Source: Minisyncoccota bacterium (GTDB taxonomy: Bacteria; Patescibacteriota; Minisyncoccia; Phycocordibacterales; CAIJYI01). Taken from it: a DNA stretch of 64,000 nt. Positions 46,779 to 54,758 of this stretch are shown in pieces (within the stretch, counting starts at the first letter, position 1; each line of letters starts with the position of its first letter). A program made the translations under genes and the position numbers. The notes beneath the pieces were generated by a model. That model worked only from the letters and a program-made list of their open reading frames with translations. It did not search any database and was not told where the DNA came from. The stretch covers positions 2,596 to 66,595 of the forward strand of contig JALNYN010000007.1 in assembly GCA_023229825.1 (NCBI GenBank), written 5' to 3'.

Positions 46779-46804
46779 GTACAACCTCCAATAAAATTTT
46801 GAAT

Positions 46805-46945
46805 TCGTCGTCATTCGTCGTCACATTTTGTCGTCATTCGTCGTCATTTTGTCGTCATTCTGAACTAGATTCAGAATCCACGTCCGTAGTCGTTCGCCGT
46901 CGTTCGTCGTCATTCCGGACTCGATCCGGAATCCACGTTCGTCGT
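46805..46945. repeat. degenerate cluster of TCGTCGTCATTC tandem motifs plus two GTCATTC...GAATCCACG units
   Basis: tcgtcgtcattcgtcgtcacattttgtcgtcattcgtcgtcattttgtcgtcattctgaactagattcagaatccacg ... gtcattccggactcgatccggaatccacg. Confidence 0.7.
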
Positions 46946-47294: not shown

Positions 47295-48146
47295 ATGAAA
47301 AGATCAAATTCAATAATACTATTTAATCAAAAACAAATTCGCCGTGTGTGGGATGAAGAAAAAGAACTTTGGTATTTTTCGGTAATTGATACGATCGGTG
47401 TGTTAAGCGAAAGTCAAGACCCGAGAAATTATTGGAAAGTGTTAAAAATTCGCTTAAAACAAGAAGGAAACGAGTCGGTTACAAAATGTAACCAACTGAA
47501 AATGCAGTCATCAGACGGTAAATATTATCTTACCGATGTTGCCGACACGGAAACGATGTTTCGCCTTATCCAATCAATTCCTTCTCCGAAAGCGGAACCA
47601 TTCAAGCTCTGGCTTGCGAAAGTTGGATATGAAAGGATGGAAGAAATGGAAGATCCGGAACTTTCTTTTGATCGTGCAGTGAAAACATACTTACAGAAAG
47701 GATACTCCGAAAAATGGGTGAATCAAAGGATCAAAAGCATTGAGGTGCGGAAAGATCTGGTTACCGAATGGGGAGAACGCGGAATAAACGAAAATTCAGA
47801 ATATGCCTTATTAACCGACGAGATTACGCGAGCATGGGCGGATAAAAGCGTGAAAGATTATAAAAAATTTAAGGGATTGAAAAAAGAAAATCTCCGCGAC
47901 AATATGACGAATCTTGAATTGGCTTTGAATACGCTTGCGGAAGTTTCCACAACGGAAATCTCCAAAAAGAAAAAACCGCAAGGGTTGGCAAGCAACAAAC
48001 AAGTCGCGCGTGCAGGAGGGCTTGCTGCGAAAAAAGCGAGGATCGAGATCGAAAAACAGATAGGCGAAAGCGTGATTACACCAAGAAATGCAAAAATTTT
48101 AATGAGTAAACAAAATCCGGCTTTATCGGCTAAAAATAAGAAATAG
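47295..48146 (+). CDS. Bro-N / DinD-like (antirepressor-family N-terminal domain) protein
   Basis: N-terminal ILFNQKQIRRVWDEEKELWYFSVIDTIGVLSES resembles the Bro-N/DNA-damage-inducible D fold. Lys-rich C-terminus. Sits in an AT-rich stretch. Confidence 0.5.
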   Translation: MKRSNSIILFNQKQIRRVWDEEKELWYFSVIDTIGVLSESQDPRNYWKVLKIRLKQEGNESVTKCNQLKMQSSDGKYYLTDVADTETMFRLIQSIPSPKAEPFKLWLAKVGYERMEEMEDPELSFDRAVKTYLQKGYSEKWVNQRIKSIEVRKDLVTEWGERGINENSEYALLTDEITRAWADKSVKDYKKFKGLKKENLRDNMTNLELALNTLAEVSTTEISKKKKPQGLASNKQVARAGGLAAKKARIEIEKQIGESVITPRNAKILMSKQNPALSAKNKK

Positions 48147-48393: not shown

Positions 48394-48445
48394 GTAATAA
48401 AGGGGACAGCCACCATTGTTTGTTAAAATATGTGTTGTAATTTAT
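48394..48445. repeat. REP-like repeat, direct copy of the left flank of the RAYT gene
   Basis: aataaaggggacagccaccattgtttgttaaaatatgtgttgtaat versus 51937-51992. Confidence 0.75.
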
Positions 48446-49281: not shown

Positions 49282-49893
49282 ATGGAAAAACAACAAATAC
49301 TTGTCATTCACGGAGGAAATGCTTTTACTACCAACGAACAATATATCAATTCTCTCCAAAATTCACGCTTGGATCTAGACAAATTGCGAATGAAAAAAGA
49401 TTGGAAAGATTCGCTTCAAGAAAAACTCGGGGGAGCTTTTGATGTCCTTCAACCGAGGATGCCGAACGCTTCCAACGCACAATATGAGGAGTGGAAATTA
49501 TGGTTTGAAAAAGCGGCAGTATTGCTGGATGACGACATTATTCTTGTAGGGCATTCGCTCGGCGGAATTTTCCTTGCCAAATATCTTTCAGAAAATGATT
49601 TTCCAAAAAAGATCAAAGCAACATTCTTGATTTCGGCCCCCTTTAGCAATGGGGAAGATGAACCTCTCGGCTCATTTGTTTTGTCGAAACCATTAAAAAA
49701 AATGGAGAAACAAGGAGGAAAAATTTTCTTGTATCACAGTAAAGATGACAAGGTTGTACCTTTTACCGAAGTAAAAAAATACATAGATCAATTGGCTGGA
49801 GCGACCACTCATTTCTTTGAAGATCGCGGTCATTTTAATCTGGAAAGTTTTCCGGAATTGATACAGGAAATACAAAATATCTCCAGCTATTGA
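49282..49893 (+). CDS. alpha/beta hydrolase, RBBP9/YdeN-type serine hydrolase
   Basis: ILVIHGG...LVGHSLGG nucleophile elbow, about 200 aa. Confidence 0.65.
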   Translation: MEKQQILVIHGGNAFTTNEQYINSLQNSRLDLDKLRMKKDWKDSLQEKLGGAFDVLQPRMPNASNAQYEEWKLWFEKAAVLLDDDIILVGHSLGGIFLAKYLSENDFPKKIKATFLISAPFSNGEDEPLGSFVLSKPLKKMEKQGGKIFLYHSKDDKVVPFTEVKKYIDQLAGATTHFFEDRGHFNLESFPELIQEIQNISSY

Positions 49894-49972: not shown

Positions 49973-51025
49973 ATGAATAAGCCAAAACGTCTTGAAAAAG
50001 GCGATACTATTGCTTTGGTCAACCCGGCGGGATTGCCGCCATTAAGATTTAGACACTTTATTCCATTGATGAAGCAATATCTGGAGAAAGAAGGTTTTTT
50101 CGTAAAACTGTACTTAGCTGAAGAAACAGCTACCGCTGAACGACTTGGTAATGTTTTTACAGAAGCATGGCTTGATTCTGAAGTTCAGGCCGTTTTTCCC
50201 ATTTGTGGAAGCTCTGTCATTTTTGAAGTATTGCCTTGTCTTTACAGTGATCTCTTAAAACAAAAAAAGGTAATATTTTGCGGATCAAGTGTTTTATCTT
50301 CGTTATCTATCTGGTTAAGTCAGCACGCTCAAGTTGTAACATTCTTTGGACCACACATTCCTTTCATTCATTCTTGTGCGCCTCAAAGAGAAAATGAATT
50401 TACCGTGCAAAGTTTTTGGGATATGATAATGTGGAAAAAGGGAAAAGCGAATAATATGTCTTCAGTCCATGAGCGACATAATTTTTTCAGCGTTAATGAT
50501 TCAAACACTCAAGATATTAAGATTAAGAATCTCTATTTACGCCCAGACTTAATCAAAGATAAACAAAAACGAGTTGCACTGTTTTTTTCATTAACAGAAA
50601 AAGTTGTTAGCGGAAAAACCTTTTGCATCACAATGGAGTGTCTACTCAGTATGGCGCGCTTGGGTTTATTGCCGAGCGTGACAAATTCGATTATCTTCAC
50701 GGAAACAATGGATTGGAATTTGGAACAGATAAAAAATACTTTCGAAGAGCTCTCGAGGCTAGATGCTTTTCATGGGGCAAATGCAGTATTCATTACGGCC
50801 TTCACCGAAAGGACTGACCGCAAAGAATTAGACTTCCCTGAATTGAGAGACCCAGCGAAAGTAAAAATTCTATGTTCTTCTATTTCCGAAAGAATCCAGT
50901 TACCTGTTCTTTATGGGTTTCCCATGGGGCATGGTTCATATAAATTAACTTTACCTCAAAACATTTCTTGTTCAATAAATCCAGAAGACGGCAGTGTTTA
51001 CTTATTGGAGCGTCCAGTTGCATAA
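49973..51025 (+). CDS. peptidase S66 family (LD-carboxypeptidase / MccF-like), divergent
   Basis: N-terminal L.KGDTIALVNPAGLP pattern and overall length and layout fit S66. The catalytic-Ser region is divergent (GSSVLSSLS). AAGGAG RBS. Confidence 0.5.
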   Translation: MNKPKRLEKGDTIALVNPAGLPPLRFRHFIPLMKQYLEKEGFFVKLYLAEETATAERLGNVFTEAWLDSEVQAVFPICGSSVIFEVLPCLYSDLLKQKKVIFCGSSVLSSLSIWLSQHAQVVTFFGPHIPFIHSCAPQRENEFTVQSFWDMIMWKKGKANNMSSVHERHNFFSVNDSNTQDIKIKNLYLRPDLIKDKQKRVALFFSLTEKVVSGKTFCITMECLLSMARLGLLPSVTNSIIFTETMDWNLEQIKNTFEELSRLDAFHGANAVFITAFTERTDRKELDFPELRDPAKVKILCSSISERIQLPVLYGFPMGHGSYKLTLPQNISCSINPEDGSVYLLERPVA

Positions 51026-51061
51026 TAATTATCCCCCGAGAAATTTTCTCGGGGGATTATT

Positions 51062-51838
51062 TTATTTTTTTAACTTTGCTATCTCGGCAAGAATTCGGAT
51101 GTGCGATCTATCTCCTAGTCCATGCCTTTCACCAAGTATCTTTCTAAGATTGTCTTGAGTGAACGGGGGTGTTCCAAAATTTTCTCCGACCATCTTCACA
51201 AGTGATTTGGTCTCGTTTTTGTATTCAAGAGTTTTTGAATATACAAGGTTTCTTAACAGGGTAACGACCTTTTCTTCTTTTGAGAGATTGGCAAACTTTT
51301 TTAGATCCAGTTGATTTGCAAGAACATTTCGTATTCTCTCGATAAGCACCACATAAAGATCGTTGGCGTCACAAGTATTACCACTTTCAATTGTTTTGAG
51401 TAACTCACCGATGATATCTGAAAAATCAACACTGGTGTTTAATGTAGCACATCCAAATGATATATCCGTCGTCCCAATATCGAGTGTCGTATTTTCGAAT
51501 AACAATGTTGGAATATGTATTTGTGTTAAATACTCAAAAAAAGATGAAGTTTCATTCGGTGTATCTGCTGTACCGAGAATAAAAATTTCCTCACCTGCAG
51601 GTAAAAAGTTGCATTCAAAAAATTTGTGCGGTCTTTTGTTGAGATACTGATAATATATCGAGCCAACCACACGATTATAGCTGTCAACTAAAACTTCTGC
51701 TTTGGCTCTGCCGTTTTTTGCCACATATACTCCGAGATTATCAATGTCTCCGGTTACACCAAAAAGAGTAACATGCGGATTCAGATAAAAGTAACGTAAT
51801 ACCGCAACGATTTTCTTACTCCAGATTCGAATTTTCAT
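51062..51838 (-). CDS. standalone divergent GGDEF-like (nucleotidyl cyclase palm) domain protein with uncharacterised C-terminal region
   Basis: GDIDNLGVY...GRAKAEVLVDSYNRVVGSIYY...FLPAGEEIFILG parallels GGDEF DIDHFKxIND...GHxxGDxVL...RYGGEEFxxLL, with AGEEI in place of GG(D/E)EF. No sensor domain. GGAGG RBS. Confidence 0.45.
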   Translation of the reverse strand: MKIRIWSKKIVAVLRYFYLNPHVTLFGVTGDIDNLGVYVAKNGRAKAEVLVDSYNRVVGSIYYQYLNKRPHKFFECNFLPAGEEIFILGTADTPNETSSFFEYLTQIHIPTLLFENTTLDIGTTDISFGCATLNTSVDFSDIIGELLKTIESGNTCDANDLYVVLIERIRNVLANQLDLKKFANLSKEEKVVTLLRNLVYSKTLEYKNETKSLVKMVGENFGTPPFTQDNLRKILGERHGLGDRSHIRILAEIAKLKK

Positions 51839-51936
51839 GGGTTCCTCCGATTTTTTAATTTTTCTACATCAATAGTACATAAAAATAAATAAATGTCAAA
51901 AAACCGACCATTTCTGGTCGGCTGTACTTAGTCTAA

Positions 51937-52714
51937 GAATAAAGGGGACAGTCACCATTGTTTTATAAAAAATATGTTGTAATATATAAGATATGCCAAG
52001 AAACGCAAGAACAGATGTCGGCGGTGAGATCTATCACGTCATCAACCGAGCAAACGGTCGCATGGTGATCTTTAATACTCCGGAGGATTATCTTCTATTC
52101 GAAAATCTTTTGTTTGATACAAAAGAACTGACTGGAATGAGGATCCTCGCTTACACCATTATGCCGAATCATTGGCACTTTATTCTACATCCGCAAAAAG
52201 ATGGGGACCTTGGTATATTTATGCATCGTCTTTCAAATGCGCATACACGAAAAGTTCACGCACTAACAAACACTAATGGGACAGGCCATCTCTACCAGGG
52301 TCGCTACAAATCTTTTCTCGTTGATTCCGACAGTTATTTTCTCACACTTTTGAAATATGTCGAAAGAAATCCGGTCAGATCAAAGACGGTAGAACATTGC
52401 GAAGATTGGCAATGGGGAAGCGCATGGCGGAGAATAAACGGTTCAAAAGCGGAAAAAAAGTTGATCGATCCGCCGATCGTGGAACTTCCTCATGGATACA
52501 AAAAATGGATAAATACACCGGATAAGGAAGATGACCTCGCTGTCATCCGCACTTCTGTAAACAAAAGCGTGCCGTTCGGAAGAGATAAATGGGTGGATCA
52601 AATGGTGACAAAGTTTCATCTTGAATCAACGCAAAAAAAACAGGGCAGACCGAAGAAAAGATAAACATTAGAACACGTGAAATGCAAAACAATGGTGGCT
52701 GTCCCCTTTATTGG
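51937..52714. mobile_element. REP-associated tyrosine transposase (RAYT) unit: Y1 HUH transposase gene flanked by inverted REP-like repeats
   Basis: Left flank aataaaggggacagtcaccattgtttt (51937-51964), right flank aaaacaatggtggctgtcccctttatt (52688-52714), in inverted orientation around the gene. Confidence 0.7.
51993..52664 (+). CDS. IS200-like HUH Y1 transposase, REP-associated (RAYT / TnpA_REP) type
   Basis: YHVINRANGRMVIF, HUH motif HWHFIL, catalytic-Tyr region YQGRYKSFLV. 223 aa. Confidence 0.8.
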   Translation: MPRNARTDVGGEIYHVINRANGRMVIFNTPEDYLLFENLLFDTKELTGMRILAYTIMPNHWHFILHPQKDGDLGIFMHRLSNAHTRKVHALTNTNGTGHLYQGRYKSFLVDSDSYFLTLLKYVERNPVRSKTVEHCEDWQWGSAWRRINGSKAEKKLIDPPIVELPHGYKKWINTPDKEDDLAVIRTSVNKSVPFGRDKWVDQMVTKFHLESTQKKQGRPKKR

Positions 52715-52751: not shown

Positions 52752-53237
52752 TTACACTTCCGCAAACAGAAGCACGTAGTTGTGTTGGTATTTTTTGGCG
52801 CATTTCGGGCAGTAGGCATAATGCACATAATAGTCTTTGGCTTTCTTTCCGCTGCTCGCGAGATGCGCATCCATTTCCTTGATGAATTTCGGTATCGCGT
52901 TGTATGACCCGTCAAAGACCTTGCTCACGAATGTTCCCGATATCTTCGCGTTGTCGGCACCGGGGATCTCTTTCGTTACGCTAAAATACAGTTCGGATCG
53001 AAACGCCGACGGGTCGCGAAAGAGGATCAAAACTTCCTCTTTGTTCTCCGGCATCGCTTTCGCATCTTCCGCCGTTTTACTCATTTTGGTTATCTTTGAT
53101 CCGATCATCGGAGGGAAAGGAATATGGAACAGAGTCGGAACTGTTTCTTTGATAAAAAGTTTGTCTTTCCACTCCAAGGTTTTGCCATCCCATTTTTCGG
53201 GATGAAACTCGACGCAGCAAATATTGTTTTGATCCAT
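52752..53237 (-). CDS. hypothetical protein (possibly GyrI-like effector-binding fold)
   Basis: 161 aa. Fold guess is weak and no family motif was recognised. Confidence 0.4.
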   Translation of the reverse strand: MDQNNICCVEFHPEKWDGKTLEWKDKLFIKETVPTLFHIPFPPMIGSKITKMSKTAEDAKAMPENKEEVLILFRDPSAFRSELYFSVTKEIPGADNAKISGTFVSKVFDGSYNAIPKFIKEMDAHLASSGKKAKDYYVHYAYCPKCAKKYQHNYVLLFAEV

Positions 53238-53450: not shown

Positions 53451-54758
53451 ATGAAAACACTTAAAACGTGGACTACCGATCCGAACGGCGATCGTCTGGA
53501 ACGGAGGAAAACAGTCTTTTTCCGTAAGCGTTCCCAAAATACGGATCGGATCGTCGTTCGAAAAGATGAACGATTCCAGTCCATGGACGGTTTTGGTTTC
53601 TCATTGACAGGCGGAAGCGCTTATCACATCATGCGGCTGCCGGCAAAAAAAAGAAAAGCTCTTTTAAAAGAACTGTTCTCGAAAAGCGGGATCGGTGTGA
53701 GCGCGTTGCGTCTTACGATCGGTGCATCCGATCTGGACATGGCACCATACTCATACGCCGATACGCCTTCGGACGATCTCGCGAACTTTGATCTGTTTGC
53801 TGGAGGAAAGGAAGTCGTTCCGTTACTTCAGGAGATCTTGAAGATCGCACCGGATATCAGAATTTTTGCGTCCCCGTGGTCGGCGCCTCCTTGGATGAAA
53901 ACAAACAATAGTTTCGTCAGCGGACGTTTAAAAAATGAATGTTACTCGGTGTATGCCGAGTACTTCGTTCGATATATTTTGGCGATGCGCGAACAGGGAA
54001 TAAACGTGTACGGCGTAACGGTCCAGAACGAACCGCTGAACGATCTGAACGAACCGTCCATGCTCATGGACCCGTCGGAACAGATCGACTTCGTCGGCAA
54101 TCATCTCGGTCCCGTGTTTCGTGATCGTAAGATCAATACAAAGATCTATTGCTGGGATCACAATTGTGACCGGCCCGATTATGTACTGCGCGTGCTGAAA
54201 GATGAAAAAGCGCGTGAGTATGTAAACGGTTCGGCTTGGCATCTCTACGGCGGATCGATCGATATTTTGGACTACATTCACGAAGAGCATCCGGAGCACG
54301 AGATCATTTTTACCGAGCAGTGGGTAGCGAAGAAAAGCGATTTCGGCGGCAATCTCTCCTGGCATGCCAAGAACATCATCATCGGCGCACCGCGCAACTT
54401 TGCGAAAGCTGTTTTTGAATGGAACCTCGCCAACGACCCCGAATGTAATCCGCACACAGAAAAAGGCTGTGCGGAATGCCTCGGAGCTTTAACGATCGAT
54501 GAGAACGGGGAAGTCACACGAAACGTCGCCTATTACCTCATTGCTCACGCTTCAAAATTCGTCCCGCTCGGATCGCATCGGATAGGATCAAATGTCGAGA
54601 AAGGTCTGCCGAACGTCGCCTACGAAACCTCCGGTGGAAAGCTCGTACTGATCGTGTTCAACGAAGAACCACAACTCCGTTCGTTCGCAATACAAGAAGG
54701 CGAATATTTTGCGGAAGTAAGTTTACCCGCAGGAACGCTCGCCACATATATGTGGTAA
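53451..54758 (+). CDS. glycoside hydrolase family 30 (glucosylceramidase-like)
   Basis: GFGFSLTGGSAYHI, FASPWSAPPWMKTNN and VTVQNEP motifs characteristic of GH30. Confidence 0.75.
   Translation: MKTLKTWTTDPNGDRLERRKTVFFRKRSQNTDRIVVRKDERFQSMDGFGFSLTGGSAYHIMRLPAKKRKALLKELFSKSGIGVSALRLTIGASDLDMAPYSYADTPSDDLANFDLFAGGKEVVPLLQEILKIAPDIRIFASPWSAPPWMKTNNSFVSGRLKNECYSVYAEYFVRYILAMREQGINVYGVTVQNEPLNDLNEPSMLMDPSEQIDFVGNHLGPVFRDRKINTKIYCWDHNCDRPDYVLRVLKDEKAREYVNGSAWHLYGGSIDILDYIHEEHPEHEIIFTEQWVAKKSDFGGNLSWHAKNIIIGAPRNFAKAVFEWNLANDPECNPHTEKGCAECLGALTIDENGEVTRNVAYYLIAHASKFVPLGSHRIGSNVEKGLPNVAYETSGGKLVLIVFNEEPQLRSFAIQEGEYFAEVSLPAGTLATYMW

Follow-up and report, generated by a model that had tools for sequence, protein, structure and literature searches.

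The 64,000-nucleotide stretch of Minisyncoccota DNA analysed here (the window; positions are counted from its first letter) encodes on its minus strand, at 51062-51838, a 258-residue protein that we call the palm protein, after its predicted fold. An earlier reading of the sequence (the original prediction) had described it as an orphan, sensor-less GGDEF-like protein inside a repeat-bounded segment. Exactly one long open reading frame (ORF) lies on the minus strand in this interval; it starts with ATG and is preceded by GGAGG, in agreement with the ORF and the strong ribosome-binding site of its own that had been claimed. Judging from its relatives, it is a real gene and not a chance ORF, because 52 homologues were found at 90% clustering, with expectation values (E) down to 1e-96. 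A gene for a divergent S66 serine peptidase converges on it from the plus strand, and a second hydrolase gene lies on the same strand as the peptidase. The features of the three genes are:

51062-51838, minus strand: palm-protein gene, 258 residues plus stop codon, ATG start (ORF list)
51844-51848, minus strand: ribosome-binding site GGAGG, 5 nt ahead of the ATG (read from the sequence)
51434-51781, minus strand: palm domain (GGDEF/Cas10-like), residues ~20-135 (Foldseek on the AlphaFold model)
51731-51754, minus strand: motif TGDIDNLG, residues 29-36, predicted first metal-binding strand (D31, D33)
51584-51598, minus strand: motif AGEEI, residues 81-85, counterpart of GG(D/E)EF / GGDD
51065-51433, minus strand: family-specific C-terminal helical domain, residues 136-258, with its own conserved residues
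49973-51025, plus strand: divergent S66 serine peptidase gene, 350 residues, PF02016 and PF17676; convergent with the palm gene and 36 bp from it
49282-49893, plus strand: PF06821 serine hydrolase, 203 residues (Pfam); second hydrolase of the cluster in this lineage

Fold and Domain Structure

The AlphaFold2 model of the palm protein, calculated from the family alignment, had a mean predicted local distance difference test (pLDDT) score of 95.2 and a predicted template modelling (pTM) score of 0.88. When the model was compared to the PDB with Foldseek, GGDEF domains ranked first, led by DosC (4zvf, E = 1.6e-4) and followed by WspR, GcbC and the Idiomarina phytochrome cyclase. These and other GGDEF structures (4zvf, 3i5b, 5euh, 5llx, among others) matched over about 150 columns with a probability of 1.0, E-values from 1.6e-4 to 1e-2 and template modelling (TM) scores, normalised to the target, of about 0.5. 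Csm1/Cas10 structures were close behind, with E-values of about 2e-3 and a probability of 1.0 over up to about 195 columns. The matches to class III adenylyl cyclase (E = 6.6e-3) and to full-length yeast Thg1 (5xox, E = 0.016, probability 0.85) were worse, and the choice that had been posed between GGDEF, Thg1 and adenylyl-cyclase palms came out in favor of a GGDEF/Cas10 palm. Among the viral models in BFVD, the only good matches were phage GGDEF proteins.

In the model, only ~20 residues precede the first palm strand, and the protein is without an N-terminal sensor or receiver, as had been proposed. A palm had been placed in the first ~110 residues; the fold was borne out, while the domain itself extends over ~115 residues, from 20 to 135. 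The ~125 residues that follow it, also anticipated, form a helical domain with its own set of conserved residues (R170, L177-D178, K181-F182, R196-N197, Y200, Y206-K207 and T210). Modeled alone, this domain gave a pLDDT of 93.6 and five helices, including a long hairpin, and a Foldseek search of the PDB with it found no fold match (best E = 4.0), the Thg1 fingers included.

Sequence comparisons gave much less. The palm protein from the window had no match in Pfam (even at E ≤ 10), NCBIfam or PADLOC beyond a chance-level LmuA fragment (E = 0.011). PDB chain sequences, searched with the full-length protein, the family profile and a palm-only profile, yielded no palm protein; the marginal matches (E ≥ 0.02, not significant) were to the ACT region of aspartokinase and covered residues 84-132. 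When the palm-only profile was run against a large protein database, all that came back were fragments of this family, without a bridge to annotated families, and hhalign gave no meaningful alignment between the palm profile and an approximate PleD GGDEF sequence. Among the 52 family members, eight had weak, sub-threshold matches to the Cas10-Cmr2_palm2 family (PF22335; best E = 0.001) and a single one matched GGDEF (PF00990; E = 0.013); the window protein matched neither, for GGDEF even at E ≤ 10. On the strength of the modeled fold, the motifs and the weak Pfam matches in 8 of the 52 relatives, we assign the protein to the GGDEF/Cas10 palm superfamily, as a very divergent, sensor-less member with a private helical domain.

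Conservation and Distribution of the Palm Family

The homologues are 234-281 residues long, except for two fragments of 209 and 175 residues, and none carries a Pfam domain. One is identical to the palm protein and is listed as a hypothetical protein of a Candidatus Paceibacterota metagenome-assembled genome (MAG) at NCBI. When 1.84 billion cluster representatives were searched exhaustively with HMMER, the family came to 77 clusters at 50% identity, and a motif-limited scan of 185,579 GTDB species found 29 palm loci. By these sequence counts, the family is conserved but rare.

Fourteen residues are at least 90% conserved among the 52 sequences: T29, G30, D31, D33, N34, L35, G36, G43, R44, A47, E48, D52, N55 and P80. 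The TGDIDNLG motif, conserved to the same level, is invariant in a more diverse, palm-only alignment of 24 sequences, in which the other residues also stay conserved. The window protein has the helix motif G43-R-x-x-A-E48-x-L-V-D52. In the AGEEI motif, G82, E83 and E84 are invariant. Compared to the GG(D/E)EF signature, the first glycine (position 81) is mostly alanine or serine and the phenylalanine is replaced by isoleucine or valine, although the residue-level equivalence of the palm motifs with GGDEF comes from an alignment made by eye. Neither the catalytic nor the C-terminal motifs differ between genomic contexts, peptidase-linked or sigma-54-linked (see below).

The DID, GHxxGDxxL-like and GEE motifs on which the original prediction had been built were thus all present, and their acidic residues proved invariant or nearly so in the 52 homologues. 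Its alternative, a degenerate and non-catalytic scaffold, is disfavored because the family as a whole keeps GDxDNLG and (A/S)GEE. A replacement of the second metal-binding aspartate (D33N, in the sequence GDLNNLG) was seen in one member only, from Uhrbacteria (L023:5890-6759). This member is also the only full-length one seen without an adjoining S66 or sigma-54 partner gene, and it may be a decaying copy.

A Conserved Partnership with Serine Peptidases

We fetched 49 related loci, of which 41 were included in a scripted neighborhood comparison, using tblastn and clustering of all ORFs. Of the 36 loci whose palm ORF is intact, 32 have an S66 gene adjoining it; an S51 peptidase gene was found in 19 of 39 loci that were clustered. 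A gene for an S-adenosylmethionine (SAM) methyltransferase sometimes joins the palm, S66 and S51 genes. The description of the palm gene as an orphan therefore did not stand, since the S66 gene at 49973-51025 has its counterpart beside the palm gene, as a conserved partner, in almost every related locus.

Four arrangements were distinguished. In the first, the palm gene faces S66 and S51 genes on the opposite strand, with a tail-to-tail gap of 18-44 bp. The second has palm, S51, S66 and often the SAM methyltransferase in one direction with overlapping stop and start codons. In the third, seen in gut and rumen MAGs labeled Alphaproteobacteria, the palm and S66 genes are co-directional and overlapping; where co-directional genes overlap at stop and start in this way, the gaps are -1 to -26 nt. 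The fourth resembles the first, except that a PF06821 serine hydrolase replaces S51. It is found in the window and its closest relatives (L001, L002 and L010-L012), and the slot of this hydrolase holds S51 in most other loci with an S66 partner. The peptidase-palm module occurs mainly in bacteria of the candidate phyla radiation (CPR).

The linkage between palm and S66 genes is not inherited synteny alone, because it is kept through changes of order and strand and between proteins that are only 30-35% identical. The identities of the two proteins drop in parallel across the loci. Close homologues of the window S66 form a discrete set of 21 (47-61% identity), after which E-values drop from 1e-100 to 1e-9, and at least 12 of the 21 agree with a palm homologue in the length of their longest contig and so apparently share contigs with palm homologues, which suggests that the close S66 homologues co-occur with the palm gene. 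Two cluster representatives, P0064 (488 residues) and P0112, are fusions of the palm, the helical domain and an S51 peptidase. P0064 was found on 10 contigs from different samples, with an S66 gene overlapping its end.

The window S66 protein scores above the cut-offs of both Pfam S66 domains (PF02016, 40.2 bits against 25; PF17676, 45.2 bits against 23.7). The nucleophile Ser106 is present in 26 of 27 partner S66 sequences and His320 in all 27, while the acid is glutamate in 12 and aspartate in 15. The S51 partner keeps the GxSAG serine and the histidine, and from these residues both partner peptidases look active. The partner S66 proteins have the motifs F(F/Y)GPH, NIY and GFPxGHxxYKLTxP, which are missing from a second, generic S66 protein in L015. 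Databases annotate the partner as muramoyltetrapeptide carboxypeptidase; the window protein nevertheless falls far short of the LdcA equivalog model NF008424 (39.3 bits, cut-off 378), and its best PDB sequence matches are Lmo1638 and MccF-like proteins, not LdcA (best E = 5e-7). Taken together, a partnership between a predicted palm synthase and serine peptidases is strongly supported and has no described counterpart in the literature searched; in full text, no paper was found that ties S66 or S51 peptidases, LD-carboxypeptidases or MccF to Cas10/GGDEF palm enzymes or to anti-phage activity.

Several loci have additional genes around the module. In L024:7353-9468, two tandem S66 paralogues follow the palm and S51 genes; the second has alanine in place of the nucleophile serine (CGYAG) and is probably inactive. 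In L047:1-9334, as in L048 and L049, the fusion and its overlapping S66 gene lie in a co-directional run with genes for Archease and the RtcB RNA ligase, and for proteins of 307, 175, 564 and 598 residues without assigned function. The RtcB/Archease neighbors are curious because another palm branch pairs with RtcR-like CARF-sigma-54 activators. In one locus only, a 374-residue ThiF-family protein is encoded just downstream of a palm-S51-S66-methyltransferase operon (L038:9746-10870), and its C-terminal region matches models of leader-peptide binding and cyclodehydratase proteins of thiazole/oxazole-modified microcin (TOMM) type.

Sigma-54 Activators and Other Contexts

In three loci, L013 (from a Zixibacteria MAG), L039 and L040, a gene for a sigma-54 AAA+ activator comes next after the palm gene, either overlapping it or 1-22 bp away. 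The N-terminal domain of these activators is a CARF domain, matched by the Pfam model Cas_NE0113 (E = 6e-22) and by the NCBIfam model cas_NE0113 above its cut-off; the activators also match the PADLOC CARF5 and RtcR_PspF2 CARF_AAA_HTH models. The gene that comes next in L044-L046 also encodes a sigma-54 activator, but one whose N-terminal domain, of ~290 residues, is not the same and has no Pfam match (L044:909-2780 and L045:1232-2110 are the coordinates of two of these activators). By eye, the sequence FPCDAIINTIH had suggested a macro domain, an identity that we dropped when Pfam did not confirm it.

In a neighbor-joining tree, the sigma-54-linked palm proteins sit between two peptidase-linked clades. 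The two kinds of palm protein probably share their chemistry, because the catalytic and C-terminal motifs are identical in both contexts. CARF domains detect cyclic oligoadenylates or the ends of RNA, and the CARF-sigma-54 context points to a nucleotide ligand. The sensing of (cyclic) oligonucleotides by CARF domains is documented (PMC4012209, PMC13577387), and activators of the CARF-NtrC type unlinked to rtc genes were noted in 2014 without a source of ligand (PMC4012209). The palm family is a candidate source of ligand for such CARF-sigma-54 activators not linked to the Rtc operon.

Two more contexts were seen. One palm gene adjoins a reverse transcriptase gene (L026). A distant member of the family is divergent from a ubiquitin-like conjugation cluster (L041:1600-4386, minus strand) that encodes a ThiS-like protein of 71 residues, a protein of 378 residues, a weakly JAB/MPN-like protein (Prok-JAB, E = 0.011, below the Pfam threshold) and a ThiF/E1-like protein.

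Genomic Surroundings in the Window

The remaining features close to the palm gene are:

51031-51057, both strands: 12-bp GC-rich hairpin, terminator-like, between the convergent palm and S66 genes
51872-51899, minus strand: promoter-like TTGACA-16-TACTAT on the upstream side of the palm gene (consensus scan, 10 of 12 positions match); a pattern match only, with a match count not above the shuffled expectation
51993-52664, directly upstream of the palm gene: Y1/RAYT transposase gene, PF01797 (Pfam)

The gene does lie beside a RAYT unit in AT-rich DNA, as had been pointed out: GC content near it is 36-38%, compared to 44-54% across much of the window. AT content is just as high in some other parts of the window. 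On either side of the RAYT gene, at 51938-51988 and 52662-52712, is a copy of a 50-nt element (core AAAGGGGACAGYCACCATTGTTT), the two being inverted relative to each other. The 64 kb contain one more copy, in direct orientation and 3.5 kb away, at 48396-48445, which brings the total to three. Neither the element nor RAYT was found in the 38 related loci checked, and no relatives of the palm protein were found in IMG/VR, phage records or plasmid records.

We considered that the palm gene might be cargo of a repeat-bounded mobile segment, and rejected this possibility: the 38 related loci lack the element, yet keep the order of palm, S66 and hydrolase genes. The mobile context in the original prediction was thus not upheld. 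It seems instead that the RAYT unit was inserted, in this lineage specifically, next to a gene pair that is older, because the element occurs in no related locus and the palm protein is without IMG/VR, phage or plasmid relatives. A defence role is possible; the local context does not show one. An IS200-like Y1 transposase gene also lies just upstream of, and divergent from, the palm gene of a gut alphaproteobacterial MAG (L032:5209-5664, minus strand). The presence of a Y1 gene upstream of the palm gene in two unrelated genomes, the window and L032, may be a coincidence.

Upstream of RAYT, the window encodes a PF20603 "bacterial hydrolase" at 52752-53237 (161 residues, E = 9e-51) and a GH30 glycoside hydrolase at 53451-54758 (435 residues). 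Neither gene was found by tblastn in the 38 related loci. A partnership with the gene at 52752-53237, whose conservation beside the palm gene had been proposed as a check, was discarded for this reason. At the start of the AT-rich stretch, a 283-residue protein with a Bro-N domain, which is typical of phage or mobile antirepressor-like proteins, is encoded at 47295-48146; just upstream of it lies a short array of TTCGTCGTCA-type repeats (46804-46912).

Comparison with Known Systems

The closest system in logic is mCpol of Panoptes, but the palm family is separate from it. In Panoptes, an anti-phage system, constitutive synthesis of a cyclic oligoadenylate holds a toxic effector inactive. The mCpol protein is a sensor-less, dimeric mini-Cas10 that makes 2',3'-cyclic di-AMP (2',3'-c-di-AMP) or cyclic triadenylate (cA3) (PMC12657230, PMC13577387) and is encoded beside, and at times fused to, a 2TM-beta or CARF-TM effector (PMC12657230, PMC12657218, PMC13577387). 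Type I systems combine OptS and 2TM-beta with 2',3'-c-di-AMP, and type II systems combine mCpol and CARF-TM with cA3. Like mCpol, the palm protein is a stand-alone, sensor-less, Cas10-related single palm encoded beside a variable partner gene. In one branch of its family, the partner carries a CARF5-type domain, and CARF5 is also the CARF type closest to the CARF-TM models; the palm-S51 fusions recall the cyclase-effector fusions reported for mCpol (PMC13577387). However, no mCpol family came up in the Pfam results of the 52 members, and the mCpol entry 9NWN was absent both from the PDB sequence matches and from the top 50 Foldseek matches. The palm protein also carries an extra conserved helical domain of 125 residues. 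Where mCpol has a membrane effector, the palm protein has soluble S66/S51 peptidases or sigma-54 activators as its partners, and the palm loci examined showed no gene for 2TM-beta or CARF-TM.

GGDEF domains (PF00990; DosC, WspR, PleD) gave the best structural matches and appear to have the same order of motifs, with a DxD strand, a G-x-x-x-(G/A)-(D/E) helix and an xGEE hairpin, and dimer-dependent catalysis would be expected of the palm protein by analogy. Unlike them, the palm protein fails the Pfam model, has no N-terminal sensor or stalk, and carries a C-terminal helical domain that GGDEF domains lack. An RxxD inhibitory site (I-site) five residues upstream of the signature is common, though not universal, in GGDEF domains; the palm protein has none, the sequence there being ECNFLPAGEE. 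The position of the guanine-contacting asparagine is apparently valine or alanine in an alignment made by eye, so that specificity for GTP is doubtful. The second palm of Cas10 (Csm1/Cmr2; PF22335) is the only Pfam family that was matched repeatedly, if below threshold, and Csm1 structures matched over up to about 195 columns; the 49 loci examined are nonetheless without cas genes, CRISPR array, HD domain or second palm. As to the partner, the window S66 resembles LdcA and MccF in its Pfam domains and in the retained serine, histidine and acid (E/D), but is far from both in sequence, has subfamily-specific motifs and has close homologues that appear to co-occur with the palm gene.

By its model, the palm protein would share the palm fold of the superfamily while falling outside the GGDEF, Cas10 and mCpol families. 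Within this known superfamily it stands for a family that has not been described before, which has an accessory domain of its own and partners of a new kind.

Proposed Function and Alternatives

The explanation that we consider best, with a confidence that stops a little short of even, is that the palm protein is a sensor-less, catalytically competent Cas10-like nucleotide synthase whose product links to partner proteins. Its basis is the fold, the conserved catalytic residues, the linkage of the genes and the fusion, from which we infer how the enzyme might act. It would be made up of a single palm domain, whose two-metal site is intact, and the family-specific helical domain, and would be one component of a conserved module with a dedicated S66 serine peptidase as obligatory partner. 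In most lineages, the module would include a second hydrolase (S51, or PF06821 here) and at times the SAM methyltransferase. By analogy with other single-palm enzymes (GGDEF, mCpol), the palm enzyme would work as a homodimer, for which the long helical hairpin is probably the interface, and would join two or more nucleoside triphosphates to form a cyclic dinucleotide, a cyclic oligonucleotide or a nucleotide conjugate related to these. Nucleotide synthesis would be coupled to the partner either by this product or by a complex of enzyme and peptidase; the existence of the palm-helical-S51 fusions P0064 and P0112 argues for physical coupling. In the peptidase branch, the product would control or respond to S66/S51 activity, with the peptidases as output or as input, while in the sigma-54 branch the activator would recognize it through its ligand-binding domain.

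More tentatively, the palm protein could be the signal half of an undescribed module, in which a mini-Cas10-like synthase would have a direct connection to serine peptidases of the cell-wall type (S66 alone or together with S51), in place of nucleases, pore-formers or NADases, and, in other bacteria, to CARF-sigma-54 activators. The nucleotide might switch the peptidases on or off, as in a guard or suicide system of the Panoptes/CBASS kind directed at peptidoglycan precursors. Alternatively, the peptidases might be the input, reporting muropeptides or peptides to the synthase. We know of no described signaling system of this kind in CPR bacteria.

Several observations weigh against a nucleotide synthase that signals to its partners. 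The family is rare; the window protein has no match to GGDEF, Cas10 or mCpol sequence models; and the profile searches of PDB sequences gave no palm protein. The S66 and S51 partners have no recognizable nucleotide-sensor domain (SAVED, CARF or STING) through which a nucleotide might act on them. Two sequential hydrolases and a methyltransferase resemble a small metabolic pathway equally well, and in the window the palm and S66 genes are convergent and not co-transcribed.

An alternative that we hold to be unlikely is nucleotide-peptide chemistry. The palm would place a nucleoside monophosphate on an amino acid, short peptide, SAM or other metabolite, the MccF-like S66 and the S51 or serine hydrolase would process the conjugate, and the methyltransferase would modify it, so that the module would serve biosynthesis, detoxification or salvage as a small pathway. 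MccF, a hydrolase of aminoacyl-nucleotides, belongs to the S66 family, and the PDB sequences nearest to the window S66 are Lmo1638 and MccF-like. Two hydrolases and a small-molecule-type SAM methyltransferase are found in one overlapping operon, and the non-orthologous replacement of the second hydrolase (S51 or PF06821) is as would be expected for a pathway step. According to a passage in PMC13577387, Cas10 enzymes are able to work with a non-nucleotide acceptor, as in SAM-AMP. Genes for ThiF/E1-type adenylyltransferases lie near the palm gene in L038 and L041; however, they do so in these two loci only, and those of L041 belong to the ubiquitin-like/JAB cluster. The loci are without a transporter or a recognizable precursor peptide, the CARF-sigma-54 branch fits a diffusible ligand better, and to our knowledge no palm-fold enzyme nucleotidylates a peptide.

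We see an equally small chance for a housekeeping messenger in muropeptide recycling, an explanation that partly overlaps with the signaling function favored above. In this case, the S66 protein would be LdcA-like and the S51 protein PepE-like, and the palm protein would be a cyclase of the cyclic dinucleotide type that regulates or reports on them; CdaA-GlmM, which links c-di-AMP to the synthesis of peptidoglycan precursors, has a comparable logic. The database annotation of the partner as muramoyltetrapeptide carboxypeptidase would fit, as would the cell-wall neighbors YceG and VanY in L003, a YkuD-like protein in L028 (its sequence read by eye) and NusA, YidC, SecDF and tRNA synthetases in several loci. 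The CPR loci are also without the hallmarks of defence islands and without a PADLOC match. However, the family is too rare and patchy for such a role, with 77 clusters among 1.84 billion representatives and 29 loci in GTDB, and the partner S66 belongs to a distinct subfamily (GPH, NIY, GFPxGHxxYKLTxP) that fails the LdcA equivalog model. The neighbors in the sister branch (CARF-sigma-54 activators, reverse transcriptase and the ubiquitin-like/JAB cluster) resemble conflict systems.

A non-catalytic palm is considerably less probable. It would be a degenerate GGDEF-like scaffold or a ligand-binding subunit of the peptidase, its ferredoxin-like fold being used like an ACT domain, and would agree with the change of the first glycine of GGDEF to alanine or serine, with the marginal, non-significant aspartokinase ACT matches and with the failure of any active-cyclase sequence model to match the window protein. 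Nevertheless, both metal-binding motifs are kept down to ~30% identity and in all contexts, which is unexpected for a scaffold, and the sole D33N variant is the L023 copy, which has no adjoining partner gene. Least probable of all is a Thg1-like enzyme for 3'-5' nucleotide addition or RNA-end repair, with a palm and helical "fingers" in ~250 residues: its size and two-domain layout, the weak Foldseek match to full-length yeast Thg1, the RtcB and Archease genes upstream in L047-L049 and the RtcR-like activators of the sister branch are set against a match far weaker than those to GGDEF and Cas10, a poor superposition (TM-score 0.29, root-mean-square deviation 14), a C-terminal domain that matches nothing, Thg1 fingers included, and a peptidase link that would be left unexplained.

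Significance

If its members are active, the palm family would join GGDEF and mCpol as a third lineage of minimal palm nucleotide synthases that stand alone. The gut alphaproteobacterial MAGs have operons of two and three genes that could go directly into E. coli for expression. If the proposed function is true, it would connect nucleotide second messengers, or nucleotide conjugates, to peptide or cell-wall chemistry, and the palm module may be among the few tractable signaling modules of CPR bacteria.

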